64,000 bases of DNA from contig MU004240.1 in the NCBI GenBank assembly GCA_010405405.1, positions 1,084,882 through 1,148,881 of the forward strand, in the 5' to 3' direction. The stretch comes from Microthyrium microscopicum (taxonomy: Eukaryota). Below the pieces are notes generated by a model. That model saw nothing but the letters and a program-made list of their open reading frames with translations, did no database searches and had not been told where the DNA came from. Made by a program: the position numbers and the translations under genes. Positions 28,360-48,844 of this stretch are shown piece after piece (within the stretch, counting starts at the first letter, position 1; each line of letters begins with the position of its first letter).

Positions 28360-31141
28360 TGTCGTGGACGGCAAGAGAATTTCGTTCGCATCCAAGATCT
28401 GACATCCAGGGGAAAGACAGATATATCAAAGATAGACAATCTCACATAATGCGCAAGCACCCCTTTTTACCCTGTCAAAAGAGCCCCTGAGAGAAATTAC
28501 GTTCTTTTCTTTTCAAAGATTTGCCTGTCAATCGAGCGGAATTGATTCTGGAAGGGTAGACAGTGCGGTAGGAGTCTGATTTTGCTAGGCTTTTAGTACT
28601 ACCTGATTGACGCATTAATTCTAATAAGGCATCGTGCTTTGCTGAGTGGATGTCTAGTGTTCACTGTTTGGTTCAAGCGTTCTCCTCGGCCACGCTGATG
28701 TCAAACCGATATACAGACTGAAATTCTCCTAGAACCGCGGCGTTCGCACAACCCACAGTCCGTACTACCGTACCTGCTTTCTCAGAATCTTATAGGAGAG
28801 ATATCCCCTGACAAGGAAGCACCTAGTCTATTAGCATGAGGAAACGCACAGAACGTGTCAGCTATGGTCCGTTCACTTCTTCCGAGATACCCAATGGGTT
28901 AATTTCAGCCTCATCAATTTAAGGTATGACACTGATAAGTCAAATTATACAATATTGGGAACCAAAATTGTGTAAACGATCTAAGGAACTGCACATGTTA
29001 GGTTATTAGTCCCTGAGCACAGATAGTCCGTGAGGCACCGAATGTCTGTGCTAGAGTTGAATGTCCGCTAATATGGAGTTTTGGGCAGTGGCATGGCTTC
29101 TTTCGTGTTGAACAGTATGACTCTACCTGTGTCGATCCGTGGCACTACCTGGTAGATGAAAATCGCACCTCTCCCGTGCTTGTTGATCTTGACATAATAT
29201 CGGATCCTATATCCAGGCTGATGTTTCGATATGATAATCATTTTGGCTTTACTCTATAGAACACATTGCAGTTCTTACGATGGAAATCCTTTGCCGAATG
29301 CCCTGACATCATACCATTGCTTTATCTAGAAATTCCCGGGTGTTCATTAAAAACCTGGGAGCAAAGAGGTTGGAGGACTTGTAAAGTTTTGACCTAATGT
29401 CTCAGAGCCATCTACCCATAGCCCTCAGCATGGCGGAGTGCTTCCGATTTGCTGGGTTAAGTGTAGATCAGTTGTCATGATGAAAATAAATTGCGAGTGG
29501 AGCCTTTGAGAGCTTGATGCTGAATTTGGTGTACGATTGCTTGCTGAAGACTGTAATGCACGTCCGAAAGAATGGAATAAAGTCTCGTTTCACGCTCTCT
29601 TATTGAGTGACCATGTGCAGCTTTCCGAGATATGACATTTTCATCATTTGCGATTCAGATCATCAAGTACTTGTCACGTTGCTCAACAGTCGGTAGGCTT
29701 TCGAACAAGATTTCAACTCAGACCTTGTGGCAATTTCAGTTCCTCGTTCGACAAGAAAGCCCATAAGTTTTCCTTGAAGATGAGACCTGGCAAACCGGGC
29801 GATCTAATAGAGTTATCAGCTGCTGTACAGCAACGGACCAGTTAAGGATGTCTTCAGGACGAAAGTATCCTTGAAGCTATACTGCTTGGCTTATCCGAGA
29901 TCGAGGAGGACTTTGCAGCAATTCCTAGATATCAGATAGATATTTACCTCCCTCGAAGTGAATTCAACACAAATAGCGTGCTAATATTTTCATAGTGGGC
30001 AATGATTAGATCATTTTGGATCAATAAATCCATAATACTCTGAGCACATGTCATAGAGAGTGAAGATCTGGATGATTAGAAGTTAAAGATATTCTCCTTG
30101 TAGGGGACAATTAGAAAAGCTCAAAAATCTACTTAGACTGATATTGCCATATATCGTTTGTTTTCTCCATCATATGATTGTTGAGTACTTGATAGTAATT
30201 TTCGTTCAGACAGGATATAACTCACAAGTATTGGAAATGATTTCGCCATGGTATGTAGCCCACAGATCGACATGTAATATCGAAGTAGGATCTACAACTG
30301 GCATGTTCTGAGACATGTTCAAAATCTCGAATTCTAAACTCAACCTCATCACCAAGAAACATTCGTCAGTGCTAATCAAATGCTTATGGTCTAGCAGACT
30401 AAATCGACTTGCCAGGCGGATTTGAAGTTCGAACGCGAAGTGCTTCTCTCTACAATACTCCATAACCCAATCAAATGAGACTCCTTTGATGAATTCTCGT
30501 GCTCGCCTACCTTCTTGAATGATGAGCATAAGCGCCGTTAACCCACTATCAAGGCCATAAGCAAGTCAGCTGTATCGAATCCTATTCGAGCAGCTTGGAT
30601 ATCTGGGTTTTCTACCGTGATACTGAATAGTCCACATGGGTGTTCTATCTAATGCCATGTCGAAGAAAGTTCAGTTATCGTGAAGTTGTGATAAGAAAGC
30701 TTCAGGGGCTACCGTACATCAAAAGAAAGCAACGGTTCAACAGTTCCTAATACAACCATACAGAAGATTTGGGCCAGTAGAATTGTTCTTAAGACCTACC
30801 ACTATTACGGTTTTAGTAAGGCTTCAAAAGCAAATATGGCGATGGGGCTGGGACGCTGGGATGTGGACTTGGTAGTCGGAACGCACTGTGACGTTCATAG
30901 CGTTGCTTCTCTGGAGTCTTTACCGTATTTTCGATATTCCGCCGATACTGTTCTTCATACCTATTACATTCCTGCTCACCACACTCAATTGTCTTTGATC
31001 ATCGGAAACATATCTGATCAAAGTCGATTGTCAATTGCTGCCCCGCGTTTGGCAGCTGCAACCGCTGCTGTTGCCCTCCATCACGATCACGCATTGTGCG
31101 AACAGAAACCCCGCCACCCAGACTCCAGCTCAACAGACATC

Positions 31142-34100
31142 ATGGAGCCTCGCGACAAGCATCACCATCGCTCCAAGTCACAGCTTGCGAAATCCCTCCT
31201 CCACAAGGTCTCTAGCAAGGCCGATGTACACAAAGAAGACCCTGGCGAAACGTCTGAAAGTGTTGGCCGCGATTCTCTAGCCGCCTCGGAGTCCAATATG
31301 TCAATGGCATCAAGATCCTCACGCCCTCGCCCAGGGCCATCATCCACAAGCGTACCCGATGAAGGCAATGGCAAAGCCGCCGTGCAATCAGACCCAGCGG
31401 CTAGTGGAGCTTCGCTAGAGCAGTCTGTCAGACTTTTCCGCTACTTCGAAGCGCTCCAAATTGGCGACCGAGCTGCCATCGCCAAGGCCTTACAAGAGCA
31501 AACTGCTGGTTCCTCCAACCGACTTGAAGGTACTACACTCTTGCATCTTGCGATCCAATGCGCCGATGCTCCAACCATCGAATATGTCCTTGGCAATACA
31601 ATGAGCTCCGGAGATGTGTGGGCTATCAACTCGCGGGACAAGGATGGCAATACGCCACTTCATCTGGCATCTAGGTTTGGCCGGGCGCCCATTGTCCGAC
31701 TAATACTGGATCAGGATGATGTGGACGACTCAATCACCAATTTTCAAGGTCAGACAGCTTTAGACCTAGCGTACAGTCCAGAGATTTTCCAACAACTGCA
31801 GCTAGCGCGCTCCTTCCTCATCGATTCCAACGTGCGCAAAATCCAAGAACTTATTGCACGCCGGGACTACATTGGGCTAGAGCAAGCACTAAATGAATCG
31901 AAAATAAAAAATACGATTGATGTCAATGGCATGGAACTTGCCACTGACAAAGGCACTGTTGAGACTGGTGGCACTCTGCTTCATGAAGCTGCTAGGAAGA
32001 AGGATTTGAAGCTCATTCAGATATTGCTGATGAACGGGGCCGATCCATTTCGAAGGGACAGAAAAGGCAAGCTTCCTCAGGACGGTACAAAAGATGAGAA
32101 GACGAGACATATCTTGAAAAGATCTCCAGCTGCTGAGACAGCTCAAAGAAGTGTTCAAGAGAAAGGAATTTTGGGAAATTCTAGTACTCAAGCTCTCAGC
32201 ATTGCACCAAATGACAACCCACTTGGTGGCAAGGAAAGCAGAGAAATGAAAGGTTATTTGAAGAAATGGACAAATTACACCGGAGGTTGGAAGCTTCGAT
32301 GGTTTGTTCTTGAAGAAGGCGTTCTCAGTTATTACAAAAACCAAGGTTTGTGTTTCCTGACTATTCCTGTTGACTCTTCTAACCCTCGTAGATGATGCTG
32401 GAGCTGCCTGTCGAGGTGCGATCAATATGCGCATCGCAAGATTGAATATGGACCCCCAAGACAAACTTAGACTCGAAATTCATGGAAAATCATCAGTCAA
32501 GTATCACTTAAAGGCCAACCACCAGGTGGAAGCAAAGCGCTGGTACTGGGCTCTCAACAATGCTATTCAATGGGCCAAGGATGAGGATAAAGAGGAGCAA
32601 AAACGGCAAGACCAAGAATCCGAAACGCTGAAGCAGGCAAGAGCCGAGCAAGATAGACGACATGGAGACTCTGCAAGCTTGCAGAGTGGCCGACCAAAGT
32701 CTTCCTTTCAAAGGCAAACTTTGGCTCCTCCTCAACAATCTGTCGGTGCTCTCAGCACTGGGCCAGACGATGATGATGAAGGAGACGCAAGCATGTTTGA
32801 GTCTAGCATAGCTGGGCCAGCAACTCGATTTACCAGTCGAACTGGCGCAGATACGTACAACGAGGACGAGGATGCCGGCGATGACACGAGCAGCCATGAT
32901 GCTCAGCCTGTTCACAAAGACGCGCTCAATATCACCGCACAGTCCTTGAAGTTACAGCTCGATCTTCTTGCTCAAGTCTCTTCGTCTCTGACAGCTGAGC
33001 GATCGCGTAATCCGAACTTGTCCTTTGCAGATCCCTCAGCCACGGCTGCTATTTCTGCCTACGAGTCTGCAGTAGGCAACCTTAAAGGACTCATTGGTGA
33101 CTTCCTTCGCATTGCCAATGATCGTGATGCTTATTGGCAGTATCGCCTAGATCGCGAGGCAAACATCCGCAGAATGTGGGAAGAAAGTATGGCGAAGGTC
33201 GCTCAAGAGCAAGAACTTTTGGGTGCAAAGATGGAACAGTCCGAAGACAAGCGCAAACGAACCAAGCGTGCATTGCGAGATGCCTTGGAAACTATTCAAA
33301 CTGAGGGCAGCCGGCCTATTACACCGGCAGTCGAAGGGACAGAGCCACCACTAGGCGGAAGTAAGGCAATCACTGCGATGGAGGGGCCTAGTCAATTAGT
33401 GTCCCCACTGCACAGAAAATCAACCGTAGCGGAGGTTTCACAAGAGCTATCCGACGACGAGAGCGCTGACGAAGAGGAGTTCTTTGATGCCGTTGATGCT
33501 GGAGAAGTTGAAGTCGTCGAAATGTCTGCTACAGTTGAGCAGGAAACCGAGGTGCCGAAAGCGGTTGGAAGCTTGCGAGATAACAAACTCACTGAGATTC
33601 AAAAGTCTTTTGCAGGCTACGAAGATGGAATTCGTAAGAGGCTGGCCATGGATGCAGACGACCGGCCAAAAATCTCGCTCTGGGTAAGTAAAAAGGCCAC
33701 TCCGCAGAATTCAACTAATATCACGTAGGGAATTTTGAAGAGTATGATTGGCAAGGACATGACGAAAATGACCCTTCCAGTGTCCTTCAACGAACCCACA
33801 TCACTACTACAACGTGTTGCCGAAGATATGGAGTATACTGATCTTTTGGACTCAGCTGCCGAAGTCACGGACTCAACGGAACGAATGGTCTATGTTGCTG
33901 CATTCGCTGCTAGCGAGTATGCGTCTACAATTGGGCGAGTAGCTAAACCTTTTAATCCGCTGTTGGCTGAGACGTATGAATATGTGCGTCCTGACAAGAA
34001 CTACCGATTCTTTATCGAACAAGTTAGCCACCACCCGCCAATTGGAGCCGCTTATGCAGAATCTCCAAAATGGGATTATTATGGCGAGTCGGCAGTGAAG

Positions 34101-34922
34101 TCCAAGTTTTACGGAAAATCATTCGATATCAACCCGCTTGGAACTTGGTTTCTACGCTTGCGCCCAAGTACTGGTGGCGAAGAACTTTATACTTGGAAAA
34201 AGGTCACCTCATCCGTCATTGGCATTATATCAGGCAGCCCAACCGTTGACAACTATGGCACAATGGAAGTCAAAAACTGGAAGACTGGAGAAGTGTGCAC
34301 TCTGGACTTCAAACCTCGAGGCTGGACCGCAGCATCTGCGTACATTGTCGGTGGACGAGTAATCGATGCCAAAGGCAAGACAAGATGGAGCATGGGCGGT
34401 CGTTGGAATGACAAGATATATGCCCGTCTCACACCTGGTTACGAAGACAAGGGCTTTTCGGATAAGGAAATGGCTGGTGCTCGTGGCTCACGTACTGAAT
34501 CGATGTCTTCATCCCAGGCATTCCTGGTATGGGAGGCGAACAAACGACCTACTGGCATTCCTTTCAATCTGACGCCCTTCGTGGTCACTCTCAATGCGCT
34601 CCCCGACAAGCTACGTCCAGTTCTGGCACCAACAGATACCAGACTGCGCCCAGATCAACGCGCAATGGAAGACGGTCTGTATGACTTGGCAGCTACTGAG
34701 AAGGATCGCGTCGAGGTGAAGCAGCGGGCACGGCGGAAGATCCGTGACCAGCGTGGGGAGCACTTCACCCCTAGATGGTTCACCCAGACGGTGTGTGAGA
34801 CAACAGGCGAGAAGTTTTGGAAGTTCAGCGGCGAGTACTGGGCCATGCGCGATTCGGTCGCTCATGGTGGAAGTTGGAAAGGATTGGAAGATATCTTTTC
34901 TACAGATCCGGTGGAGGAATGA
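31142..34922 (+). CDS. Oxysterol-binding protein, Osh1/Osh2 type (ankyrin + PH + FFAT + ORD), 3 exons
   Basis: Ankyrin [57 protein letters not shown] and [14 protein letters not shown]. Confidence 0.95.
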
Positions 34923-35345
34923 GTGATGACTGTTTATTCATACTCAGTTGAACAATTCTACCTATCAGGAGGTACATGCTCTGTATGCTGAGTACTTGCC
35001 ATGTTAATATGTCTTGCAATTGTAATAGTGTAATGAACGACCACGAGAATGATTCCCAAGACTGTCCAAGCTATCAAAACCCCTACTGAATTTAGTTCAC
35101 AAGGTAATCCCCGGCCGGCTATAATCAAGCGTGGTGACGCGCGGTGGATATCGATCTCCACACTCCAAGCACAATCTGGGGTATTGTTGTGGGGTAAAGC
35201 TCCAGATGCGGAGCCTAACCTGTTGTGAGGCCGTAGCTTCCGTCCATCCACGGATTCTGATTCGTTCGAATCTTCAGAGACCTTGGTATCAAGGACTTAG
35301 CATTCGGTCTGATGGCTTTCTAGTTGACCCATAGGACACTTGCTG

Positions 35346-35380
35346 AGCGGAATTGATAGCTCATAGCGGAATTGATAGCT
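35346..35380. promoter_or_regulatory. Exact 16-bp direct repeat AGCGGAATTGATAGCT x2 (period 19) upstream of the FMO
   Basis: Copies at 35346-35361 and 35365-35380, each with a CGG triplet and a TGATAG GATA core; TATA-like cttatata near 35473; regulatory role inferred. Confidence 0.6.
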
Positions 35381-35551
35381 TGAACAGACAGTTCATTGAG
35401 ATGTACAGAGCGGGGACGTGATACAAACGCGCTTGCTTTGGTCCGAACATTGTATTCATATAGCTCTGGGAACTTATATAGCAGTGGACTTCCCACTTCA
35501 AGCGTGAGTTGAAACGCTTAAATCATCACTCGACTCCTGGCAAACAACACA

Positions 35552-37650
35552 ATGGCCGCCACTCAAACCCAGTTCTCTAACCCACATAGCGTACCTCTCC
35601 CTGTCTTTGGCAAGCTTCAACCATCTTCACCTCAACATGTAGCATCAGAATGGCTGTCGAAATTCGAATCAGTGGTAACTAACGGCGATGCTTCGAGACT
35701 CGGCGATGTCTTTCACGAAGACTGCTGGTGGAGAGATCTTCTGTCAATGTCATGGGATTACCATACGCTCCAAGGTCTCAGTAAAGTAAAGACATTTGCC
35801 CAAACTCGCATGAGCAGCGCTGGGTTCAAAAATTTCAAGCTCCGTGAACAAGGCGCATTTACACCAGCTCAAGCAAAGGTCACTGACACTTTGTCGTGGG
35901 TGGAGTCTATCTTCTCCTTCGAGACTTCAATAGGTCGAGGACAAGGTGTACTGAGATTGACCCCTGATGCAGACGGTGCATGGAAAGCCTACATCGTTTA
36001 TACCTCGCTTCAAGAGCTGAAAAGCCATGAGTGGGCTACCGGTGCAAACAGACCGCACGGTGGAAAGAATACACTCGAAGGAGGCATTATCAAGGGCAAC
36101 TGGGTGGAAAGAAAACAGCGACAAAAGGAGTTCTTGGATAATGAACCAACTTGCTTGATAATTGGAGCCGGTAAGTACTTTGGAGCTTCGAGAAACTCTC
36201 TAGGTCTAATTGATAGCGTAGGCCAGGCTGGACTCATGATCGCCGCTCGTCTCCAAGCTCTAGGGGTATCTTGTCTTTTGGTCGATAGAAATCAGCGCAT
36301 TGGAGACAACTGGAGACTTCGATACAGAGTAAGCAATTTCTGAACCTTGAGAGTCCTCATTTAACATCCACGCAGACTCTGGTCACTCACGACCCCGTCT
36401 ACACATGTCACATGCCATACATGCCCTTTCCTTCAACATGGCCATTCTTCACTGCCAAGGACAAACTGGCAGACTGGTTTGAGTCTTATGCTGAGTTGAT
36501 GGATCTCAACGTATGGATGAACACAAATCTAGAATCAGCAACTTGGTCCGAAGATATTTCGTCCTGGACCGCCACCGTCAAACGTGGAGAAGAAAGCACA
36601 CGAACGTTCCACCCAAAGCACGTAATTTTCGCGACTGGACATTCTGGAGAGCCTAAGATACCGTCATTCCCAGGACAAAGTGACTTCAAAGGCACAATCT
36701 ACCACGGCTCTCAGCATCAGGATGCATCAACCACTGGCGATGCTACAGGCAAACGAGTCATTGTCGTCGGTACTGGCAACTCTGGCCATGACATTGCACA
36801 GAATTACTGTGAAAATGGAGCCCGAGTAACCATGCTTCAACGGAGAACTACACATGTCGTCAAGGCAGACACCGGTCTGCTCATGATGACTGAGGCACTA
36901 TACGGAGAGAACAGTCCTCCGACTGAGGACGCAGATCTCTATGCCCAAAGCTTCCCCGTGCCAGTCAACTTTGCCCTCATGAGAGCTACCATCAAGGCGA
37001 TTGCTGAAGCAGAGAAAGAGAACCTGCAAGGCCTACAGAAAGCAGGCTTCAAGCTAAATGATGGGGTGGATGGTTCAGGACTCTTCAGTCTTTACTACAC
37101 CCGAGGCGGTGGCTATTACATCGACGTTGGTTGTTCACAGCTTATCATCGATGGCAAGATCAAGATTGAGCAATCGCCCAATGGCATCAAGGGCTTTGAC
37201 CAAGATGGTTTGATACTGGCGGACGGAAGACGACTGGAGGCAGACATTGTTGTCCTTGCGACTGGATATGACAACATGCGAACTAGCTTGCGAAAGGCGC
37301 TAGGTGACGAGATTGCCGACAAATGCAAGGACGTGTGGGATCTCGATGACGAAGGAGAAATGAACGCGGTAAGTTTTTCGGAAGCTTTGTTTAAAAAGCC
37401 TGCTTACTGACTTGAGCAGATGTGGCGACCTAGTGGCCACCGCGGTCTGTGGTATATGGGCGGTAATCTTTCGCTTTGCCGACAATACTCCAAATTTCTG
37501 GCACTACAGATAAAGGCAATTGAAGTTGGGTTGAGCAAAGGTGATGCTGTGAACAGCAATGGAGTGAATAGTAATGGTGCAAATGGCAACGGTGTCAATG
37601 GTGGAAACGGTCATGCAGCGAATGCTTCTGCTCCTTTGCCTTTATTGTGA
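35552..37650 (+). CDS. Flavin-containing monooxygenase, type II-like, with N-terminal SnoaL/NTF2-like extension, 4 exons
   Basis: CWWRDLLSMSWDYHTLQG extension; FAD site IIGAG|QAG; GDNWRLRY; fingerprint FKGTIYHGSQH; NAD(P)H site VVGTGNSGHD; GGGYYIDVG; VVLATGY. Confidence 0.92.
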
Positions 37651-37757
37651 AAATGGATCATGATAATTGGTACGAGGAAATGTCACCTATGATTTATATT
37701 TTGATAGCCACATAAACTCTTTGATGATAACCCAGTACTCGTCAATATACAGCAGCA

Positions 37758-39188
37758 TTACTCAAAAAATTGGTTCTTCGGCCTTGCCAGACCAAGATGT
37801 TCTCTCAACGTTGTCCCCTCGTAGTCGTTACGGAACAATCCACGGCGTTGCAATTCCGGTACCAAGCGCTGAGTAACATCGTCGAGACCCTGTGGTAAGA
37901 AAGGCATAACACAAGTGAACCCATCGCATGCTCCTTCTTTAAGCCATTCTTCCATCGTGTCTGCTATGGACTCTGGTGTCCCTAGCAGACATAATCCAGC
38001 ATAGCCGCCGTAACGTGAGGCTAGTTGTCTAACGGTCAACTTCTCTGTCTCAGCCAACTTGATGACTCCCGCGCGACTGGTTTTGCTTGCGTTAGTTTCT
38101 GGTAGATTCGTTGGCAATTGACCATCAGGATCAAACTCAGATGCATCAGTGCCCAGTGCAATGGATAATGAGGATATGGCACTATCGTAATGCACGAGAC
38201 TGTCGACCTTGAGGCGCTTTGACTGAGCATCTTCCACTGTATCACCAACGATTATCATCGCAGCCGGCAGAATCTTGAGACTACTACGATCACGTCCAGC
38301 AGCTTCAGCACGGCCTTTGATATCCGCATAGAGTTCTTTCGCAGCATCCAGATTCTTTGGCGAACAGAAAACACATTCCGCAGTCTCAGCAGCAAGCTGT
38401 CGACCAGGATCCGACTGACCAGCCTGAACAATGACCGGCCAACCTTGCACAGGTCTCGCAATATTCAGCGGCCCTCTTACGGAGAGCTCATCGCCCTTGT
38501 GGTTGAGAACATGCATTTTCTCAGGGTCCAGGTACGTGCCGGACTTTTGATCACGCACAAACGCATCGTCGGCAAAGCTATCCCAGAGTCCAGTGACGAC
38601 ATCGTAAAACTCGCGAGCTCGTTTATACCGATCGCTATGCTGCATATGCTCATCCTGGCCAAAGTTTTTGGCTGATTCAGGGTTGCCGGTGGTGACAATA
38701 TTCCAGGCAGCTCGTCCACCACTGATGTGATCGAGCGAGGCGAAGCGACGAGCGATATGATATGGCTCGTCATATGTTGTGGACGCAGTCGCAGCCAGGC
38801 CGATTCTCTCAGTGACCTGTGAAAGCGCGGACAATAGTGTGAATGGTTCGAAGGATGTCACGGTGTGACTGCGCTTCAGAGCCTCGACTGGCATGTTGAG
38901 CACAGCCAGATGATCCGCCATAAAGAAGGCATCGAATTTGGCAGCTTCTAGCTTTTGTATGAAGGACTTTAGATGTGTGAGATTGAAGTTGGCATCTGGG
39001 TATGCTCCTGGATATCGCCAGGCTCCGGTATGTAAGGACACAGGTCTCATGAAAGCAGTGAGATGTAGTTGTTTTGCGGCTTTAGAACCCTCGCCGCCTT
39101 CTAGACTGTCTGTTTTGTTCTTCTTGGAGCCATTGTTGCCGTTTTCTTCTGTTCCATTTCCGTTCTCTTCATGCTTACGTTTCGTCAT
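37758..39188 (-). CDS. Luciferase-like FMN-dependent monooxygenase, NtaA/SnaA/DszA family, intronless
   Basis: HTGAWRYPGA, KFDAFFMAD, FEPFTLLSAL, ATASTTYDEPYHIARRFASLDHISGGRAAWNIVTT, QAGQS..GR, LVPELQRRGLFR.DYEGTTLREHLGL; first ATG at 39188. Confidence 0.95.
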   Translation of the reverse strand: MTKRKHEENGNGTEENGNNGSKKNKTDSLEGGEGSKAAKQLHLTAFMRPVSLHTGAWRYPGAYPDANFNLTHLKSFIQKLEAAKFDAFFMADHLAVLNMPVEALKRSHTVTSFEPFTLLSALSQVTERIGLAATASTTYDEPYHIARRFASLDHISGGRAAWNIVTTGNPESAKNFGQDEHMQHSDRYKRAREFYDVVTGLWDSFADDAFVRDQKSGTYLDPEKMHVLNHKGDELSVRGPLNIARPVQGWPVIVQAGQSDPGRQLAAETAECVFCSPKNLDAAKELYADIKGRAEAAGRDRSSLKILPAAMIIVGDTVEDAQSKRLKVDSLVHYDSAISSLSIALGTDASEFDPDGQLPTNLPETNASKTSRAGVIKLAETEKLTVRQLASRYGGYAGLCLLGTPESIADTMEEWLKEGACDGFTCVMPFLPQGLDDVTQRLVPELQRRGLFRNDYEGTTLREHLGLARPKNQFFE

Positions 39189-39858
39189 GTTGGCAGTGGC
39201 TGATGTGGGCAATTGTGTATTCCGCGCTCCTATATTTCAAAACGTTGAAACAGGACAAGCGAGCATCTGATACTTGTATGCGAGCTCAAGTAGTTCGGTG
39301 GAAAGTAGTAATCAATGATATATAATCACATCCTTGATGGCATTAGCTGGGGTAGCAATCACGACATCGTCGATTTCATGCGGGGCGTGCATCTGTGTCC
39401 AGCCTCCAGTATTGTAGGGTAAAGTGAGAGATACGAGTAGAAGGATCAAAACGTTTGTTGTAGACAAAGTACCTAGTAAGTTAAGTTAACCCATGTCATA
39501 AATGCAGTGGGTACAGTGATGTGCAGCCAGCATAATCTCTAAGTCTGAAGTTGAACACAACAATCAGCAAATACTAATGATCAAACCGAGCACTAAAGAG
39601 GCCTAGGTAAATTGATATTAGAAACTGGAAGCTGCCCGTTAAGTTTCTTGGTGCTCTTGCCCAGATCGTTTACCTGGTGTTAGGTGAGCCAACAGAGAGA
39701 AAGCTTGCAGGTAGCAAGTTTATGGAGGTACTTTCTTATCTTGCAATATGCTCCTTAGATAACAAGCATTATCAACATTGCAATTCAAAGTGGACCTAGT
39801 TGATATGGATTGAATGGGCCGTAGAAGTTGTCTATGATTACTACCGCTGCATCCTACT

Positions 39859-40250
39859 CTAGACCAGGAGTCGCCCATGAGCCGATATGATATTGGCTCC
39901 AGTAAGAGAGTTATATTTCATCAAATAGATTTACATCTCCGCAATATCCTCTGGCTCGCTAATCTTGCACGTCGGCGTCATCTTACTGAACACATCCAGC
40001 GGCACATCTTTGGCAACATGGCGCAGCATATCGGTGCGAAATGCACCAGGTGTGGCCATATTCACCAGAAAGATGCATTTCAGGTCGACAGAGTGGTGCT
40101 TTTTGTGGGAATGTCTCTTTTCTCATGCTTGAGCCACCCAGATGCCATGTTGTGTTGCGCTCCTGGGAGATATGTATATCGCCAATAAGCAAGGCGTTAT
40201 ATGAGCACAATGCTACCGATATCACTTAAGCTCCGGTGGGCAAGACGAGT
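39859..40250 (-). pseudogene. Degenerate short-chain dehydrogenase/reductase (C-terminal half)
   Basis: Manual translation VNMATPGAFRTDM...TPTCKISEPEDIAEM*IYLMKYNSLTGANIISAHGRLLV* with in-frame TAA at 39931-39933; frameshifted upstream piece LSDIGSIVLI*...PTKS. Confidence 0.7.
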
Positions 40251-40962
40251 CGTTGATACTCAACAGGCACCTCAATTGAGGATGATGTTACTCTAGATAT
40301 GAATCGAAGTGTGCTCCCATAACCGTGAGATGCTGTCGATCTTTCACATCATCAGCGATATTTCAACATAGGCTCGTTAGAGGAAGTAATGACTTGTACG
40401 ATAGGAATGTCAAATTGAAGGTGATTGTCTTGGCTTTTTGGGACCTCTGCTGGTGGTTGTTAGCACCTTAATTGGGAAGGAGCATTGGGCAAGGGGGTTG
40501 GTTTCTTACCTACGGCTACCAGTCGCGACATCTCCTTACTACATGCCCCTTCTGGCCTTCGTCGTCTTTCTTCCGCATACATTGCAACTCCAGTACCTCT
40601 CTCCTTCTACCTTTCTGGAACGTAGCAGCGCCAGACTCCAGAGGAAGACGCGTCGTGCTTCACGCGACACTAAACGAAAAGAGTGGATCAACAGTGACGT
40701 CACGATGGAAAATGCAAAGGGTTCGCGAATGGCCTAGCCGCGCTTGGTCGCATTTCACGTTGCCGCCGACGACAATTGACGAACAGACAACACGCTGCGC
40801 CATCGACTGAATACCATACTACCTTTGCATACGAGACCCGATCGCTGTTACAACCTAATTGTGTGCCAGATGAAACGCTGAAAACCTGCATTCGTTGCCG
40901 GCTTGGATCTGGACGCCAAACCGCCAGAAAAACCATTGCAACCCCTGTCATGAGCCGCCAAT

Positions 40963-43900
40963 ATGAGGGATCAGGTCCAACAACTCTCTTCCGAGTACAT
41001 CGACTACCTGAACTATGACCAAAGTCTTACCTTTGTCTTGGACCTGGAAGCTTACAACACTAGCCTGCAAGGCAAGGATATATTAACATTTTGCAATTCC
41101 GCTTTGCGCGAAAATCATCCGATCCATGAAATTATATCTCTCATCTTCTCCCCAACTACATCTTTGTCACAGCATGCAACCGAGGCCGAGTTTGCTACCT
41201 GGATTTCTGACCAGTTGGCGAGTACTGGTATCCGGAAATCGAAAACCTTCTTCGACGTATTATGGACGATCACATTACTCCCCGATCGTGCTGTGATTCG
41301 TGGGATTGATTGTTCAAATATCGAGTCGGACGGTTTCAATGGTGTGAGCACACAGGGAGAGAATCCGGAAATCGTGCCAGGACAAGCCGCTATTCTAAGC
41401 AATTCAAAATCAGATTTAGACGAGTCGAGGCTTGAGCCCGGCATATCTTTGAAAAGCATCGAATCTACCAAGCCTTTAGAGGAAAATTGGCCACCCAAGG
41501 AAATGTGTTCGTCTTCTTATATCGCCTGGTTTCGCGACTTCGACTGGGCCTCCACGTCACTTGGGCCAACTCATGAATGGCCTGATCAGCTGAAACGACT
41601 ATGCGAATTAATGCTTGTCAATCCGGATCCAGTGACAGTTTTCTGGGGACCGGAACTCATTCTAATCTACAATGAGCACTATGTAGCTCTAGCAGGAGAC
41701 AAGCATCCACAAATGATGGGGGGATCGGCAAGAGAACATTGGGCCGAGATCTGGGATCAGTACGATTCATTATTTGATCAAATGATTCTTGACAGGCAAG
41801 CTTTCAAGCAAGAGAACACTCAGCTTCACATCCGCCGACGAGGCTTCCTTGAAGAAGGCTTCTTCAATATGAGAGTCATGCCAATTCTGGGTCGCGATGG
41901 CTCGGTAATCGGGTTCTACGAGCCAGTGTCTGAAGTCACGAAGCAGGTGTTGACGGAGAGAAGAATGCATACGCTGTTGAAGCTGAGTGAGCGCACTTCT
42001 TCTGCAACTGCATTGCCAGATATTTGGCGTTTACTCCTGGAAGCATTGAAAGATCATCCAAGCGATATTCACTTTGCTGAATTGTACAGCCTACAGGACG
42101 AGGTCACATCAACGGACAAGCCACAGTACAAGTTGCATGGCGCCGTCGGTTTCAAAATGGACCATCCGGGCTTACAATCGGCACTGGAAATATCTGATTC
42201 AGACCGGCAGGGATTACACACTGCTTTGCGACAAGCACACGCCAGCAACAAACCTGCTGTGTTGTCTACTGCAGATGGAAGTCTCTCTTCGTCGTTTCTT
42301 ACCAAATTGGAAACAGTTGGCATAACTGAACCACCGAGAACATGCATCGTGTGTCCTCTATCGTGTAGTTTGGACGATGGCATTGAGGCAATGCTAGTGA
42401 TTGGCGTCAATCCCAAGAGATACTACAACGAGGATTACGAGCTCTTTGTCAACTTGCTCACCAGGCAAGTGGAAAGCACCATCACTTTTGTTAAACTATT
42501 CGAGAAGGAAAAGGAACGTCTACGCCAACAGGCAGTCTTTGATGGCGAGCTGAAATTCAAAAAGTTTGCAGAATCGGCCACGGTCGGAATCTTTTCGTTT
42601 GATCCTGCTGGTAACATAACATTCTGTAATGAATCCTGGCTGGAGTTGAGTGGACATGACAGAAACGACATGTCCGCCATGTCTTGGACCAACGATGTCC
42701 ATCCTGACAGTGTCGAAGATACTAAAAAGTACTGGGACAAGATTGTCAACCTTGAGGGACAACAAACCTTTGAAGTTCAATACAAGAAGCCATGGAAACC
42801 ATCTAACTTGAGCGATGATTCAATCTACTTAGATCGGACATGGGTTATAGCGTCAGCATATCCAGAAATTTCGGAAGAAGGCGAGCTTACAGCGATTCTC
42901 GGCTGCATTACTGACATATCGACCTGGAAGTGGGTTGATCAACTGCAATCGCAGCGTCTCAAGGAAGCGATTGAGCTCAAACGACAGCAAGAAAACTTCC
43001 TAGACATCACATCCCATGAAATGCGTAACCCATTAAATGCAATACTACATTGTGCCGCAGAGCTAGTGGATTTGCTTTCGGGTATCATCGCCTCAACCCC
43101 AGAACGAGCTCTAGTGATAAGCGACTGCCTCGATGCTTCGCGGACTATTGTTTATTGCGGCAGACATCAGAAACGCATTATAGACGATGTTCTCACACTA
43201 TCAAAGCTGGATTCAAATTTACTGAGCATCACCCCAGTCGAAACGCAACCACTTCACGTAGTTGAAGAAGTTCTCAAAGTTTTTGATACGGAAATCAGAG
43301 CATCAAACATAAAAACACAAACAAAGCTGGCCGACTCTTACAAAAATCTGCAGATAAAGACTCTTTTAGTGGATCCACATCGACTTATTCAAGTATTAAT
43401 CAATCTCGTGGTATGTTTACGTTATTGATCTTGTCTCACGGGTTTCAGGATCCCAATTCTGACCATTTTGCAGGCCAACGCCATCAAGTTCACCAAAGGT
43501 GAATCATTACGAAGCTTACATATAGTCATTGACGCATATGCGACAGAGCCCGTGAGCTCAGATAGCGGAGTACGATACGTACCTAGTGGTCGCCATCAGG
43601 TCGATCCAACAGCCCGAGCCGAATGGGGAACCGGAGACATTGTCTACCTCTATTTCTCAGTTCAGGACACAGGCCCTGGAATGACGCCTCATGAAGCGGA
43701 CCAGCTTTTCAACCGCTTTATACAAGGATCACCACGAACACACGTCCAGTACGGAGGTTCTGGGCTAGGTCTCTTCATCAGCAGAGAATTGGCAGAATTG
43801 CACGGTGGACGTATCGGCATCAGTTCTGAGCTTGGCTTTGGCAGCACATTCGATTTCTACGTCAAAGGCAGACGGGCTACAGCTAGCGCAAGTCAACAAA

Positions 43901-44487
43901 TACCAGAAGATTATCCTCGTCAAATGATAGCTTCGCATAAACCGATTTCCAGAACGCAGAGCCCAGATCAGTCTCTGCCAGCTGCACTGCCGTCGATGAA
44001 TTCCAACGTCATCCCCGAAAACCTCTCTTCCGTTCCTGTTATCCACGTACTCGTGGTAGAAGACAATCTCATTAACCAAAAGATCTTGGCCAAAATAATA
44101 AGAAAGCAAGGCTACGCAGTCAGCATTGCTAATCATGGCGAGGAAGCACTCAATATTGTTCAATCATCAACATGGCACAGGAGTCCTTCTATGGAGAACG
44201 CGCTAAAACTCGATATCGTTTTAGCAGATATCGAGATGCCGATTATGGACGGCAAGGAGTTTGTGCGGCGCGTTAGAAAGATGCAGAGCGAAGGAGTTCT
44301 GGCTAGTTATATACCAATCATCGCGGTCACAGGAAATGCTAGAAACGAGCAGGTTCTGAAGGCGAAAGAGTCTGGATTTAATGAGGTTGTGAGCAAACCA
44401 TATCGTGAGAGCGATGTTGTTTCCATGATTGAGAATTACATAAAGCAAGAGCATAGATTGGAGCAGAGTACTCCAGATGAATCATGA
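40963..44487 (+). CDS. Hybrid sensor histidine kinase (PAS/GAF-like, PAS, HisKA, HATPase, REC; group XI-like), 2 exons
   Basis: FDWASTSLGP..EWP; H-box FLDITSHEMRNPL; N-box QVLINLV|ANAIKF; VQDTGPGM; GGSGLGLFISR; receiver VLVVEDN, DIEMPIMDG, SKPY. Confidence 0.93.
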
Positions 44488-45039
44488 TAGAACTAGTACA
44501 CTCACCTTTATCTTTTTTGTCGCTGAATGATTCGCGAAGTCTACTTGGCAGGACATGAACTATCCTTAGTGAGCACTGACATGGAAGCAATATATCTACT
44601 AATATTCCTGCTTGAAGCAGTTGACATAATGAACCTTCAAACTTCGTCATCTGCTGCCTTACTCTCCTATGCCTCTGAGACTCTCCGACACTTTTCTTAT
44701 AACTTAGTAGGAAATCATTCGTCGAGTGGTTATAACAGGTAGCTTTAGTTAACCTTGGAATTTGTAAGCACTAGATCTCAGATCCACAAAGATCGACAAC
44801 TATCAACCTCTTACCCCACAAGCATGCTCTACTAAAGGTACTAACGACTAGTCGCATTCAATACTTTTCTCATAAACTTGCGTCAGAGTCTTGATAGTTG
44901 TCACAGCCCCGCATCCGATCGGTTGTCATCAATTACTTCTACTAGTAGTAGTACATAATCCACAAGTCGATCCTCCTCAATTCACTCCGACTTTCATAAA
45001 TATATGCGAGGTGGAAATCCTCCCGTTTTTGATAAGACC

Positions 45040-46697
45040 ATGAAAATACCAAATTACATGTTCTCGAGCCTTGGTGTGGCCCTTGGCGGTCTACTCAATG
45101 GCCTTGACACAGGATGTATTGGCCCAATCACTACAATGCCGGAATTCGAGGCAGTGATGGGCAAGCTCAGTCCTGGACTACTGGGCTTTACGGTCTCTTT
45201 GATCATGTTGACGGGAGCTGTGCCATCAGTGTTTGCTGGATATTTTGCAGACAAACTCGGCCGATTGAAAGTCATTGGCGTTGGAGCTACATTATTTCTT
45301 GTAGGCGCAATCTTGCAGGGTGCGTCGAGCAAGTTGGCAACTTTCTTGTGTGGAAGAGCTATTGCTGGTCTGGGTGAGGGAGTTTTCTTGAGCAATATCA
45401 CTGTGTGAGTGAGCGGAGATAAGCTTCATGAGAAGATTACCATGGAGGCTAACAAGTCACAGGTATATCTCTGAGATAGCACCATCAGTTCGACGAGGTC
45501 CACTGGCTAGTATGCCTCAGTTTCTGGCTACTACTGGAGTGTGTCTTGGTTATTTTATATGCTACGGCACAACACTTGTTACAAACCAGTTCTCGTGGCG
45601 AGCACCATACATCGTCCAATCTGCGGTCGCTGTGATGCTTATGGCTTGCTGCATTGTCTTACCAGAGTCACCACGGTGGCTGGTTGGCAAAGGCAGGAAA
45701 GAAGAAGCTATCGCCTCAATCAAAAAGCTGGGCGTCTCAATGGCAGAGGCTGAACATGACTTCCTCGGAAGTCAGAATCAAGAGGCCACTAGCTTGTCTT
45801 TGTGGCACAGCTTCTCGCTATTGTTTCGCAGAGGTTACCGAGCTCGAACTATCCTGGCGCTCTTCCTACTTGGTATGGTGCAACTCTCCGGTATCGATGG
45901 AGTACTTTATGTAAGATACCTCTCATGAGATTCGTCATAACGCACAACTGATCTGCGCACAGTACGCTCCCATCTTATTCGCTCAAGCAGGTCTTCCATC
46001 AACTACCTCTTCATTCTTAGCATCCGGTTTATCGGCGATCCTGATGCTACTAATATCAATCCCAGCGTGGCTACTTGCAGATAAATGGAACCGACGAACC
46101 TCTGCCATATCAGGCGGACTCGGTCTCTCGTTCTGCATGCTAACCATTGGCACACTCTACGCTTCCAACGCCGTTCACCCACAAGGGGCTGCACGCTGGG
46201 TAGTCATCATTCTGGTGTTTGTCTTCGGCATGACTTTCTGCGCTACGTGGGCCATAGTTGGGAAGATCTACGCGAGCGAAATTCAGCCCGCAAACACGCG
46301 AGCTGCTGCCAATTGTGTTGCTGTTGGACTCGGATTCGTGAGTTTCCATCGAAAAACTACCCATGTACAGTCAATTAACACTTCGTAGTTCACCAACTTT
46401 TTGGTTGCCATCCTGACACCATTGTTCCTTGCCAAATCCGCTTTTGGCGCATACTTCCTCTTTGGATTCCTTGCATTAGGGACGGTCTCTGTACTCGCTG
46501 CTTATATGCCTGAGACACGCGGACGCTCTCTCGAAAACATTCAAGAGGCTTTCCATCGTCCAGTCGCTGCTGGTTGGCCATCGCAGCTTCGTAAGAGATT
46601 TACAAAATCGCGCTCTTCTGGGACGAGAGAAGAAGACAGTATGGAGCTGCGGAACCACGCCACGTTGTCGACTACAGCCATAAATAGGATATCCTAG
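45040..46697 (+). CDS. MFS sugar porter family transporter, 4 exons (alternative ATG at 45004)
   Basis: GLDTGCIG, ADKLGR, YISEIAP..RG, LPESPRWL, QLSGIDGVLY|YAP, YASEIQP..TRA, MPETRGRSLE. Confidence 0.92.
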
Positions 46698-46906
46698 AGC
46701 TGATAAACCACTATCGTCATAGCACCGTTCTTGGGAAATAACTTCTGGAAAATAGGGGTTGCACTTTCGCTCCTCCCAAAAACAGTGGGATCTCGGTGTA
46801 GCTTAGTGTCCGCAAAAGGGCGCTAGGGACGGCCCGCGTAGCTAGCGCGATCATACAAAGAGAGAAGGAGCTGAGAAACATTCTCCAACTTCATTTCACA
46901 TTTATT

Positions 46907-47939
46907 CTAATCATGCAGCTGTTTGAGTCCCTCATGATAGTCGCTAGTGCCGTGCAATGGATCTGCATCTTTTGCTTTGCACTTCGGGTTCTGTTTACCC
47001 ATGCCATGCGAACCGTCAACCCGCATGAAGCTCTGGCCTCGAGCCTTCAACATGTTCCTCGCAGCGTCCTCATACCAGCCATTCACGAAGTCTCCATGGA
47101 AGCAGTACCCATCTCCGAGCTATATTATGGATTAGTTCACAGTCTTCGCGGTCATAAGACAAATGGATGTACTCACGGCTCCGCAAGAAAGCTTGAATGG
47201 TGGCGTGCCTTTCCATCCTTGTGGAATAGCGCTACGCGTATTGTACCGCACTGAGAAGCGCAGTGAAGGCATCCGCTTCATGCCTGCTGGACAGCGTCCA
47301 CCGTGAGCTGCGGCATATGCGTAGTCCTTTAGGTTGCCTGGATTCACACAGTCTGGGAATCGCAGGATCGCTTGCATATGAGCGCTGCAAGTTGTCCGAG
47401 GGAATGTGCCTCGAGGTCGACTGCCGCGATCCTCTGGTCCATTGCCATCGCACCACCAGGTGATAGCGGATATTTTTTCGTTGATATCGGATTGGCTCTT
47501 TGCTGTCTGGTTGCCCGCGACCATGTAGAAGTCGTTTGGAAAAGGGATTTCAGCCCTGTCTATTTGCTAAAATTTGTCAGCGTAAGAACTTCAGATTCAT
47601 GCTTCGAGGCTGTTTCACCGAGAAGCTTACCTCATAATATGTTTTAAAGGTTGCTGGATATATTTCCTTGTAGGTATCCCCTTGGACATACCAAAGCGTA
47701 GGTGCCCAGTAGACTGAAAGGTCATTTGGGTTCTCGCCAGATGGGCATCCCTTTTGTAAGTCCTTTGTCGTTGGTAGAACATTGGTTATGGCATCTGAAC
47801 CGTAGAAAGAGTGCATATGAGAGACATATTTCCCTGGATGCACGATGGGATCAATATTCTTTCGCATAAAAGGCCGATGTTGGATATCCGTGAGGGCAAC
47901 AACCGTCCCTACCAGCAAAGTTACTGAGGCTCCAATCAT
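46907..47939 (-). CDS. DUF1996 domain protein, probably secreted, 3 exons
   Basis: NIDPIVHPG, HMHSFYG, DLSVYWAPTL, LRFPDC, FHGDFVNGW motifs; short hydrophobic N-terminus; an upstream in-frame ATG at 48017 is possible. Confidence 0.85.
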
Positions 47940-48844
47940 ACTGAACAGTGTTTTATCCGCGATAGTTTTCGGATGAATCGAGCTCGTTGAAATAGGCTCA
48001 AAATTATGTTTTAGCATCGTGATAAGATGGATGGGACGAATGGTATGTTATAACTGACCCTTGCAGTTAGCTGCAACCCAAACCTGGCAAATGAGCACCA
48101 AAACCTGGATATCTTTAATATATAAACATTTAGCCGGTGTGGGGAAACTGTTGCAAAGTCGATCCTTAATCTGGTATATCGCTTAGAATAGCCTCGCTGT
48201 GTCCAGTCAAAAAGCGGCATCTTCTCTTCATGTGTTGTGTCTGTCACGGAAAAATGCTGTTTTATCTGGACAATAATAACCTTCGCTGGCAACTACATAT
48301 TTGAAGGTCATCTGCATAAGCTAGTGCAGGAACAGCCGTGCGATTGATGTTGTAGTAAGACTCTCACGGAGAATATTACTTCATGTTGACCTTGCAACCC
48401 TTCTTAGCTATTTTTGATTCAGTCACATAAGCAACCCCGATCGTAGCAAGTTTGCTAGCGAGATTTGCACATCTATTGGTTCTCCAAGTAGATTGAAAGG
48501 CTATCTTAACCTCCGGCTCAATTCCCACCACTTGGAAACCAGTAGCGAGCAAGTCTATGCAAAATAGCTCCACGCATTAAACGACGAGAACTTACACTAA
48601 AGAAGCAGCGTTATTTCCACAACAGAGTCACACCATTCTGTAGGTCAACCCTATATCAATGCAAAGAAGCTTTTTGAAACCCAGGATTTACCATGACTTC
48701 GCTCAGAAATGGAGCTTGTTCTCCTAACGTATGGTTTCTTTGGGGATTTCGACTCGTCCTAATGTTTACATATACTTCAGGCTGGCTTCTTCGACTCTGT
48801 CTTGTTGTTTTGTCAGTATGTATAAAATTTGAGTATGGTTTCCG

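Follow-up and report, generated by a model that had tools for sequence, protein, structure and literature searches.

The closest described systems to the gene considered here are luciferase-like monooxygenases (LLM) of bacteria and fungi. This gene codes for an LLM of the NtaA/DmoA family and lies in a stretch of 64,000 nucleotides from the fungus Microthyrium microscopicum (GenBank assembly GCA_010405405.1, contig MU004240.1, positions 1,084,882 to 1,148,881, forward strand). The whole stretch is called the window, and coordinates are counted from its first letter. The BdsA/DszA enzymes (PDB 5tlc, 5xkc, 5xkd) resemble the window protein in family and fold (320.7 bits; template-modelling score on the query, TMq, 0.84), but they are only about 39-40% identical to it, which is far under the orthologue level, and the window protein is not a DszA equivalent. 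CmoJ/YtnJ (MoxC) from Bacillus subtilis (PDB 6ask, 1yw1, 1tvl) is the best structural match (E 8.9e-45, TMq 0.81). Its sequence score of 319 bits equals the BdsA level, and it is only about 38% identical to the window protein. CmoJ/YtnJ presumably belongs to a Bacillus sulfur-utilisation operon, and we take CmoJ to act on a sulfur compound.

The Rhizobiaceae LLM orthologues (for instance, those of Rhizobium leguminosarum pPR3, WP_018246985.1, and Neorhizobium galegae pNgVX) are 78-81% identical to the window protein over residues ~38-475. They belong to the same orthologous group and share the length of its catalytic domain. However, they are devoid of its N-terminal extension, their G+C content at third codon positions (GC3) is about 0.74, and many of them reside on a megaplasmid or chromid, close to genes for SfnB, Rrf2 and peroxiredoxin, whereas the fungal gene stands alone among unrelated eukaryotic genes. 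To our knowledge, none of these bacterial orthologues has been characterised.

Among fungi, the monooxygenases mox-7/NCU10015 and NCU05888 of Neurospora crassa and SOX and the FMNH2-dependent monooxygenases of Candida albicans are reported to be induced by sulfur starvation under the control of CYS-3 or Met32, and single C. albicans mutants to show no phenotype. These LLM-type enzymes are described there as fungal homologues of bacterial desulfonating flavin monooxygenases, and by analogy their role would be the one proposed below for the window gene. A 447-amino acid nitrilotriacetate monooxygenase-family protein of Hypoxylon sp. CO27-5 has been reported as '>84% identical to orthologues in Rhizobiales' (Fekete et al. 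2021, J Fungi 7:710, PMC8469720). The Rhizobiales likeness of such fungal proteins was already remarked in print in 2021, in passing: that paper, which deals with Hypoxylaceae stwintrons, gives it one sentence and contains no phylogeny or transfer analysis. According to the same paper, the Hypoxylon gene is otherwise free of intervening sequences but carries a newly gained stwintron. It very probably belongs to the same fungal orthogroup as the window gene. Literature searches returned no paper devoted to, or analysing, this bacterium-to-fungus transfer.

The window gene is most probably the product of an ancient single transfer; it is fully domesticated, expressed in this fungus and widely retained. 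In all likelihood, one copy of a Rhizobiaceae-type alphaproteobacterial NtaA/DmoA monooxygenase gene was given to an early filamentous ascomycete ('leotiomyceta') and was domesticated there. The sequence-only reading of this DNA had described an uninterrupted gene of 476 codons, of NtaA/SnaA/DszA type, from a mainly bacterial family. The gene is indeed a single ATG-to-stop open reading frame (ORF) whose 476-residue translation contains both of the peptides quoted in that reading. TIGR03860 (NCBIfam; NtaA/DmoA family, FMN-dependent monooxygenase) aligns over its whole length (model positions 1-422 of 422) and scores 537.9 bits, well above its cutoff of 279.7, and PF00296 (Pfam; luciferase-like monooxygenase) scores 175.7 bits against 27.9, while the remaining NCBIfam models, including SfnG, SsuD and RutA, stay far under their own cutoffs. 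The family is very large and essentially bacterial, with 11066 clusters at E <= 0.001, and the ESM Atlas matches are only generic bacterial LLM clusters. The AlphaFold model, calculated from a 35-sequence alignment, has a mean predicted local distance difference test value (pLDDT) of 84.4 and a predicted template-modelling score (pTM) of 0.83. With this model Foldseek retrieves CmoJ/YtnJ, Burkholderia NtaA and BdsA at TMq 0.81-0.84 (score on the target, TMt, 0.89-0.90) over 439-450 columns, and the protein is predicted to have the TIM-barrel LLM fold with the large insertions of the ~440-amino acid subgroup.

In a search over 5.8 billion proteins only the best 120 of 8000 scored matches were considered; these are 78-87% identical to the window protein. 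An organism is named for 36 of them, namely 35 fungi (Leotio-, Dothideo-, Eurotio- and Sordariomycetes) and one Quercus suber. In a second search, with a Diaporthe orthologue as query, all the organism-named sequences among the best 120 are fungal. It adds the Sordariomycetes Diaporthe, Cytospora, Fusarium, Ilyonectria, Neonectria, Clonostachys, Sarocladium, Lasiosphaeris, Echria and Podospora, as well as more Eurotio-, Dothideo- and Leotiomycetes. Thus, the named eukaryotic matches in both best-120 lists are Pezizomycotina of four classes plus the one plant record, and no N. crassa or Candida protein is present in either list. Orthologues are located on Mb-scale contigs of many fungal assemblies.

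Some of these records deserve a comment. The sequence labelled Quercus suber (P0078) falls within the fungal clade beside Mycosphaerellales sequences (98/87) and looks like fungal DNA in a plant assembly, not a plant gene. The Venturia inaequalis and V. nashicola orthologues (P0005 and P0015) are labelled 'Histidine--tRNA ligase' by their source; they are full-length PF00296 proteins, so that this label is an annotation error, which may propagate. Three Exophiala dermatitidis sequences were considered as paralogues, but they are 98-99% identical and were therefore taken as strain variants.

Bacterial relatives were searched for in contigs of one genome per prokaryotic species, a scan seeded with peptide patterns of the fungal query. 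Across the best 80 loci listed, identity to the window protein is 64-81%. Among them, those of Rhizobiaceae/Brucellaceae reach 74-81% over residues ~38-475, and those of Acetobacterales (Belnapia, Roseomonas and relatives) and of one Rhodospirillaceae and one Hyphomicrobiaceae metagenome-assembled genome reach 64-70%. The best E-values are effectively zero for fungal and bacterial relatives alike. An independent tblastn search of plasmids is led by megaplasmids of N. galegae and Rhizobium (79-80.6%), and 114 of the 431 matching plasmid records are at least 60% identical. Of the full-length proteins that represent clusters at 50% identity, a single one comes close (67%), while all others stay at 48-49% or less. 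Therefore, the fungal proteins and these alphaproteobacterial ones constitute a tight orthologous group, and a wide gap lies between it and the remainder of the family.

The direction of the transfer was addressed with a careful IQ-TREE phylogeny (446 columns, LG+C20+F+G4 by posterior mean site frequencies, PMSF) of 60 sequences, composed of 24 fungal sequences, 33 bacterial orthologues (thinned to less than 90% mutual identity) and three distant outgroup sequences; a quick tree of 65 sequences agrees with it. All 24 fungal sequences are found in one clade supported at 100/100 (ultrafast bootstrap/SH-like approximate likelihood ratio test, UFBoot/SH-aLRT), and the fungi together with the 26 Rhizobiaceae/Brucellaceae-type sequences form another clade of 100/100. 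The fungi are nested among the Rhizobiaceae behind three branches (98/83, 99/90 and 98/84), which set fungi, Neorhizobium, Agrobacterium, Shinella and Brucella apart from R. leguminosarum-, Sinorhizobium- and Mycoplana-type sequences. The Acetobacterales and the Rhodospirillaceae/Hyphomicrobiaceae pair branch outside this fungal and Rhizobiales clade. The bacterial orthologues appear as a single group in 0 of 200 bootstrap trees, and a tree constrained to keep the 26 Rhizobiales sequences as a clade without the fungi was rejected (log-likelihood difference, delta lnL, 28.8; approximately unbiased test, p-AU 0.004). In a FastTree phylogeny of 225 sequences, all 191 fungal ones belong to one clade (support 99). 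Since the fungi are a clade nested in bacteria, the transfer went from bacterium to fungus, and one entry is enough.

Several points weigh against this reading. The Rhizobiales group of the approximately unbiased test was chosen after the tree had been seen, and the exact bacterial sister of the fungi is weakly supported (72/48). The bacterial sampling consists of the best loci, seeded by peptide patterns of the fungal query. In addition, the age and the point of entry are only bracketed, with the best 120 sequences of each protein search at hand.

The transferred copy shows the features of a resident gene. Its GC3 of 0.479 is in the range of 20 neighbouring ORF pieces (0.503 +/- 0.045), whereas 79 bacterial orthologues have a mean of 0.743. 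Its relative synonymous codon usage correlates at 0.52 with the neighbours and at 0.14 with the bacterial orthologues (a typical neighbour reaches 0.50 with the rest). Thus, the codon usage of the gene is that of its fungal neighbours; its G+C content, 0.47-0.51 per kb, is not distinct from the rest of the window either. Compared with three fungal-like metagenome orthologues, synonymous differences (pS 0.80-0.85) are saturated and non-synonymous ones (pN) amount to 0.10-0.11, showing that the copy is maintained under strong purifying selection. The median identity of 84% among 121 fungal proteins (the window protein and its best 120 matches) reflects constraint and not recency, because synonymous sites are saturated. 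The reading frame is uninterrupted in the window copy and in four full-length fungal-like contigs, so the gene has stayed intronless while showing fungal codon usage. An apparent break in the contig L086 was examined as an intron or frameshift and discarded, as the coordinates show an in-frame divergent stretch.

Transcript contigs from a public run (X1) were aligned to window positions 30000-48000. That X1 is RNA was only a guess, and the cDNA nature of its contigs rests on spliced joints: because they skip 10 short segments of neighbouring genes (45-63 nt, bounded by GT..AG or CT..AC), they derive from spliced transcripts. The spliced neighbours are genes for an oxysterol-binding protein (OSBP), a flavin monooxygenase (FMO)-like protein, a hybrid histidine kinase and a sugar transporter. 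One contig (record 2, 3566 nt) crosses 37419-39260 without any joint, which covers the whole ORF and at least 72 nt upstream, and this leader of at least 72 nt contains no ATG ahead of the annotated start. The monooxygenase gene is transcribed in this fungus from its own promoter, and, as the sequence-only reading had stated, it is intronless among intron-bearing neighbours. The linkage to intron-bearing flanks, which that reading wished to see checked, is provided by record 2, which joins the gene to the spliced FMO-like neighbour.

Two further proposals of the sequence-only reading agree with these data: a proteobacterial origin, given the identity to Rhizobiaceae/Brucellaceae and the nested maximum-likelihood placement, and an old event common to other fungi, given the presence in four Pezizomycotina classes, the saturated synonymous sites and the fungal codon usage. 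That reading had also set a vertically inherited, broad fungal clade following the species tree against the transfer. Such breadth was found, but the species-tree order was not, since the fungal gene tree departs from class taxonomy. A broad fungal clade does not refute the transfer, because it sits inside bacterial diversity and departs from that taxonomy; it means, therefore, that the transfer goes beyond this one genome.

The function of the enzyme is a separate question. By analogy with its family, it would be a group C, luciferase-like, FMNH2-dependent monooxygenase, whose TIM barrel would take reduced FMN from a separate NAD(P)H:flavin reductase, form a flavin-(hydro)peroxide with O2 and oxygenate a small substrate. 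Near the orthologue of N. galegae, at a distance of 4 kb, an 'NADPH-dependent oxidoreductase' is annotated. In the window, Pfam detected no flavin reductase domain among 26 large ORF pieces. With about even chances, and by analogy, the role would be the cleavage of a C-S bond of an organosulfur compound, of sulfone or sulfonate type, with release of assimilable sulfur.

Sulfur-related genes are the only functional neighbours that recur beside the bacterial orthologues. L090 and L096, two Rhizobiaceae-like contigs whose flanks extend over 10 kb, have as divergent neighbour an SfnB-family sulfur acquisition oxidoreductase gene (TIGR04022, 552 and 550 bits, cutoff 430.9), and genes for a 1-Cys peroxiredoxin and for an Rrf2 regulator are close by. 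Among specific models, the regulator matches CymR best, but below cutoff. The same divergent SfnB-monooxygenase pair is annotated in R. leguminosarum pPR3. With the L090 SfnB as tblastn query, an SfnB-like gene was found within 3 kb of the orthologue in 28 of the 80 bacterial genome loci. A clear divergent SfnB neighbour (at least 59% identical over at least 406 residues) is present in 24 of them; of the other four matches, one is fragmentary, one is a piece at a contig edge, one is 32% identical and one lies downstream. Other loci carry SsuD and another NtaA paralogue (L077), a cystathionine gamma-synthase-family fragment (L012), a cysteine desulfurase-like gene (L063) or CysK (L082). In Brucella pituitosa (L035, 4297-6997), two NtaA/DmoA-family genes (586 and 350 bits) are located directly downstream on the opposite strand, forming a three-member cluster. 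Organosulfur scavenging is the best guess because 24 of 80 bacterial orthologues stand back-to-back with an SfnB gene.

Some further observations concern the surroundings of bacterial orthologues. A VapC/Phd-YefM toxin-antitoxin pair is annotated right after the orthologue of R. leguminosarum pPR3 (L162:8326-9017), and the N. galegae copy is carried by a 2.1-Mb replicon typed as conjugative (MOBP, MPF_T). In a soil metagenome contig, a protein with TIR and TPR domains, with a Thoeris ThsB-like TIR match, is encoded at L124:7046-9025, about 1 kb upstream of a 70%-identical orthologue.

The active site was compared with that of BdsA, whose FMN-binding residues are V137, S139, H156, R159, Y160 and L230 according to the published report (PMC5819316). 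On equivalences counted by hand on the alignment, four of the six (V137, H156, R159 and Y160) are identical in the window protein as V165, H184, R187 and Y188, and S139 corresponds to T167. Across the 35-sequence alignment V165, R187 and Y188 are invariant and H184 is nearly so. With respect to the substrate pocket, F12, F56 and F246 are kept as F46, F89 and F274, and V372 was not mapped. An identity as a DszA/BdsA dibenzothiophene sulfone monooxygenase was discarded, since three of the six mapped pocket residues differ (H20->L52, V248->S276 and H316->A344) and overall identity is low. As the FMN residues are conserved and the pocket differs, the sensible reading is that the flavin enzyme is active but does not have dibenzothiophene sulfone as its substrate.

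The organosulfur proposal also has its counterweights. One FMN-site residue, BdsA L230, is Q258 in the window protein, and the pocket substitutions just mentioned count in the same sense. No SfnB-like gene was found within 3 kb in 52 of the 80 bacterial loci, many of which have unrelated neighbours, and neither the 64-kb window nor six fungal-like metagenome contigs contain a relative of SfnB, peroxiredoxin, Rrf2 or CysK. The CYS-3/MetR motif, searched for as the consensus ATGRYRYCAT, is absent upstream of the gene; the whole window contains two matches, compared with 1.31 expected, both elsewhere.

These facts leave appreciable room, short of an even chance, for an enzyme unrelated to sulfur that would oxygenate an aminopolycarboxylate (similar to nitrilotriacetate or ethylenediaminetetraacetate), an alkane, a xenobiotic or an intermediate of secondary metabolism. 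The window protein matches NtaA, EmoA, LadA, HcbA1, riboflavin lyase and the streptoseomycin enzyme at similar levels, its immediate neighbour in the fungus is an FMO-like oxidoreductase gene and not a sulfur assimilation gene, and there is neither a sulfur-regulator motif upstream nor a sulfur gene nearby in the window. However, what recurs beside the bacterial orthologues is sulfur-related (SfnB in 24-28 of 80 loci, SsuD, CysK, a Cys/Met enzyme, Rrf2), and sulfur compounds are the substrates of CmoJ/YtnJ and BdsA, the leading structural matches (for CmoJ, as we take it).

The history of the gene within fungi is less simple than its entry. A tree in which the seven Dothideomycetes sequences were constrained as a clade was rejected (delta lnL 44.8, p-AU 0.0126), the group being set by taxonomy, with the class membership of Tothia, Oleoguttula and Venturia checked and that of the other sequences assigned by general taxonomy. 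Class labels on 68 named sequences, assigned mostly by general taxonomy, require 11 changes compared with a minimum of 3 and a mean of 33.6 when shuffled. The fungal gene tree departs from class taxonomy; nonetheless, class labels are strongly clustered on it.

The N-terminal extension provides a character outside the tree columns. Residues 1-40 of the window protein are of low complexity and contain two basic clusters (KRK ... KKNK), and the extension is missing from bacterial orthologues and from most fungal ones. At least 28 residues precede the conserved domain start LHL(T/A)AF in 27 of 113 scorable fungal sequences, after 8 of the 121 were dropped because this anchor motif was not found. 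In 22 of these 27 sequences, two basic clusters are 8-24 residues apart. In a tree built without the extension columns, 24 of the 27 belong to one clade of 28 sequences (support 91), which comprises the window gene, Helotiales (a Mollisiaceae species, Oculimacula and Leptodontidium) and Venturiales (three Venturia species and Tothia). Their extensions can be aligned (M-x-KR-x-R/H ... NG ... NG-x-KK-x-K). Thus, a subclade of Helotiales and Venturiales that includes the window gene gained a basic N-terminal extension of about 40 residues.

In a variant that we consider rather unlikely, the gene would have come from bacteria into one fungal lineage and would then have spread from fungus to fungus across classes, in place of one ancient entry with vertical descent. 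The rejected Dothideomycetes clade, the excess of class changes, the grouping of Venturiales (Dothideomycetes) with Helotiales (Leotiomycetes) with their shared, alignable extension, and the position of the fungal clade within the crown diversity of Rhizobiaceae all argue for it. On the other hand, hidden paralogy with differential loss yields the same pattern, so that both processes fit the fungal tree; class labels are far more clustered than when shuffled, and most inner fungal branches are weakly supported. Moreover, synonymous sites are saturated between fungal orthologues, and therefore any fungus-to-fungus spread would itself be old.

A more elaborate proposal combines a single ancient entry from a Rhizobiaceae megaplasmid, a move between classes involving Helotiales and Venturiales, and the extension as a bipartite nuclear localisation signal-like module, giving a nucleus-targeted monooxygenase with a new role instead of a cytosolic sulfur scavenger. 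A Rhizobiaceae entry would be in line with type IV secretion, which Agrobacterium uses when it transforms fungi under laboratory conditions. The extension as a putative bipartite signal is our own assumption, and the combination as a whole appears quite improbable.

Turning back to an early transfer from bacterium to fungus, the reverse direction, from a fungus to the Rhizobiaceae, would agree with the unusual likeness of the two sets of proteins (up to 81%), but it is very improbable: in the rooted tree the fungi are monophyletic and the bacteria paraphyletic around them, orthologues of Acetobacterales, Rhodospirillaceae and Hyphomicrobiaceae lie further out with thousands of more distant clusters beyond, and neither the window copy nor the four full-length fungal-like contigs have an intron. 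Even less credit is due to vertical inheritance from the alphaproteobacterial ancestor of mitochondria, or from a last common ancestor, with loss elsewhere. The nearest relatives are indeed Alphaproteobacteria, but 74-81% identity to one bacterial family, and nesting in it, is unexpected for a divergence before the radiation of eukaryotes, and the named eukaryotic matches in the two best-120 lists are Pezizomycotina, bar one plant record placed among fungal sequences. Bacterial contamination or an assembly chimera, for which nothing but the bacterial look of the protein speaks, is already refuted because a transcript contig links the gene to its spliced neighbour and its GC3 and codon usage are fungal, to which the fungal-type extension, the orthologues on Mb-scale contigs of many fungal assemblies and the ordinary intron-bearing flanking genes, a HET-domain gene included, can be added.

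Filamentous ascomycetes are well known to have acquired metabolic genes from bacteria, and the case is of a known kind. It is a well-resolved new instance of bacterium-to-fungus transfer, clear but with precedent, and an unusually clean one: cross-domain identity is about 80%, the donor family is resolved, and one entry has been retained in four classes under strong constraint. It points to a highly conserved enzyme common to rhizobia and to many plant-associated, soil and clinically relevant fungi. The fungi with this enzyme include Venturia, Fusarium, Diaporthe, Exophiala and Fonsecaea, in which it may extend the range of usable sulfur sources. Besides, the incongruent fungal tree and the lineage-specific extension offer a small, testable system for the domestication of transferred genes.

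Coordinates of the monooxygenase gene and its parts in the window
Feature	Position	Strand	Basis or remark
Complete coding sequence, LLM/NtaA-DmoA-family monooxygenase	37758..39188	-	476 codons, no intron; ORF list, translation, unspliced transcript contig
Stop codon	37758-37760	-	Included in the ORF coordinates
Catalytic TIM-barrel domain, residues 43-464	37797..39062	-	Full TIGR03860 model, PF00296, AlphaFold/Foldseek
N-terminal extension, residues 1-40	39069..39188	-	Outside the TIGR03860 model; pLDDT <50 for residues 1-36
5' untranslated leader, minimum extent	39189..39260	-	End of transcript contig record 2; ATG-free; start context CCAACATGAC
3' untranslated region	37419..37757	-	Shared with or abutting the convergent FMO-like gene (+) at its last exon and 3' end; same transcript contig

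The FMO-like gene (35552-37760, + strand) converges on the monooxygenase gene. It has three short introns, at 36169-36221, 36328-36376 and 37367-37419, all skipped by record 2, and its Pfam match covers 36376-37365. Since record 2 runs from this gene on into the monooxygenase gene, the 3' ends of both genes abut or overlap, a single contig over two genes being no proof of a single transcript. The pairing is absent on L085, the sole fungal-like contig with sufficient downstream flank. In a tblastx comparison of window positions 28001-50000 with the six fungal-like metagenome contigs (L081, L084, L085, L086, L098 and L134), the monooxygenase gene is the sole match, a result that says little about synteny because their flanks are short (0.7-10 kb). 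One of these contigs contains a second LLM gene (L134:8458-9546), about 43% identical to the window protein and about 0.5 kb upstream of the orthologue, with which it forms a tandem pair.

The domains found by Pfam on the 26 large ORF pieces (shugoshin, ELO, Pus7, GH2, OSBP, HET domain, OTCase, AHAS small subunit and G3P dehydrogenase, among others) show that the window is an ordinary fungal chromosome region. A transcript joint at 40449-40510 has CT..AC ends, which correspond to a GT..AG intron on the minus strand, and sits in the 1.7-kb gap that separates the monooxygenase gene from the histidine kinase gene of the + strand. No convincing ORF was found around it. The joint would point to an antisense or other minus-strand transcript that is not annotated or, conceivably, to a leader longer than the one given above. 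The HET (heterokaryon incompatibility) domain, typical of filamentous ascomycetes, is encoded in an ORF of 597 codons at 50145-51935 (+ strand) that shows no obvious interruption.

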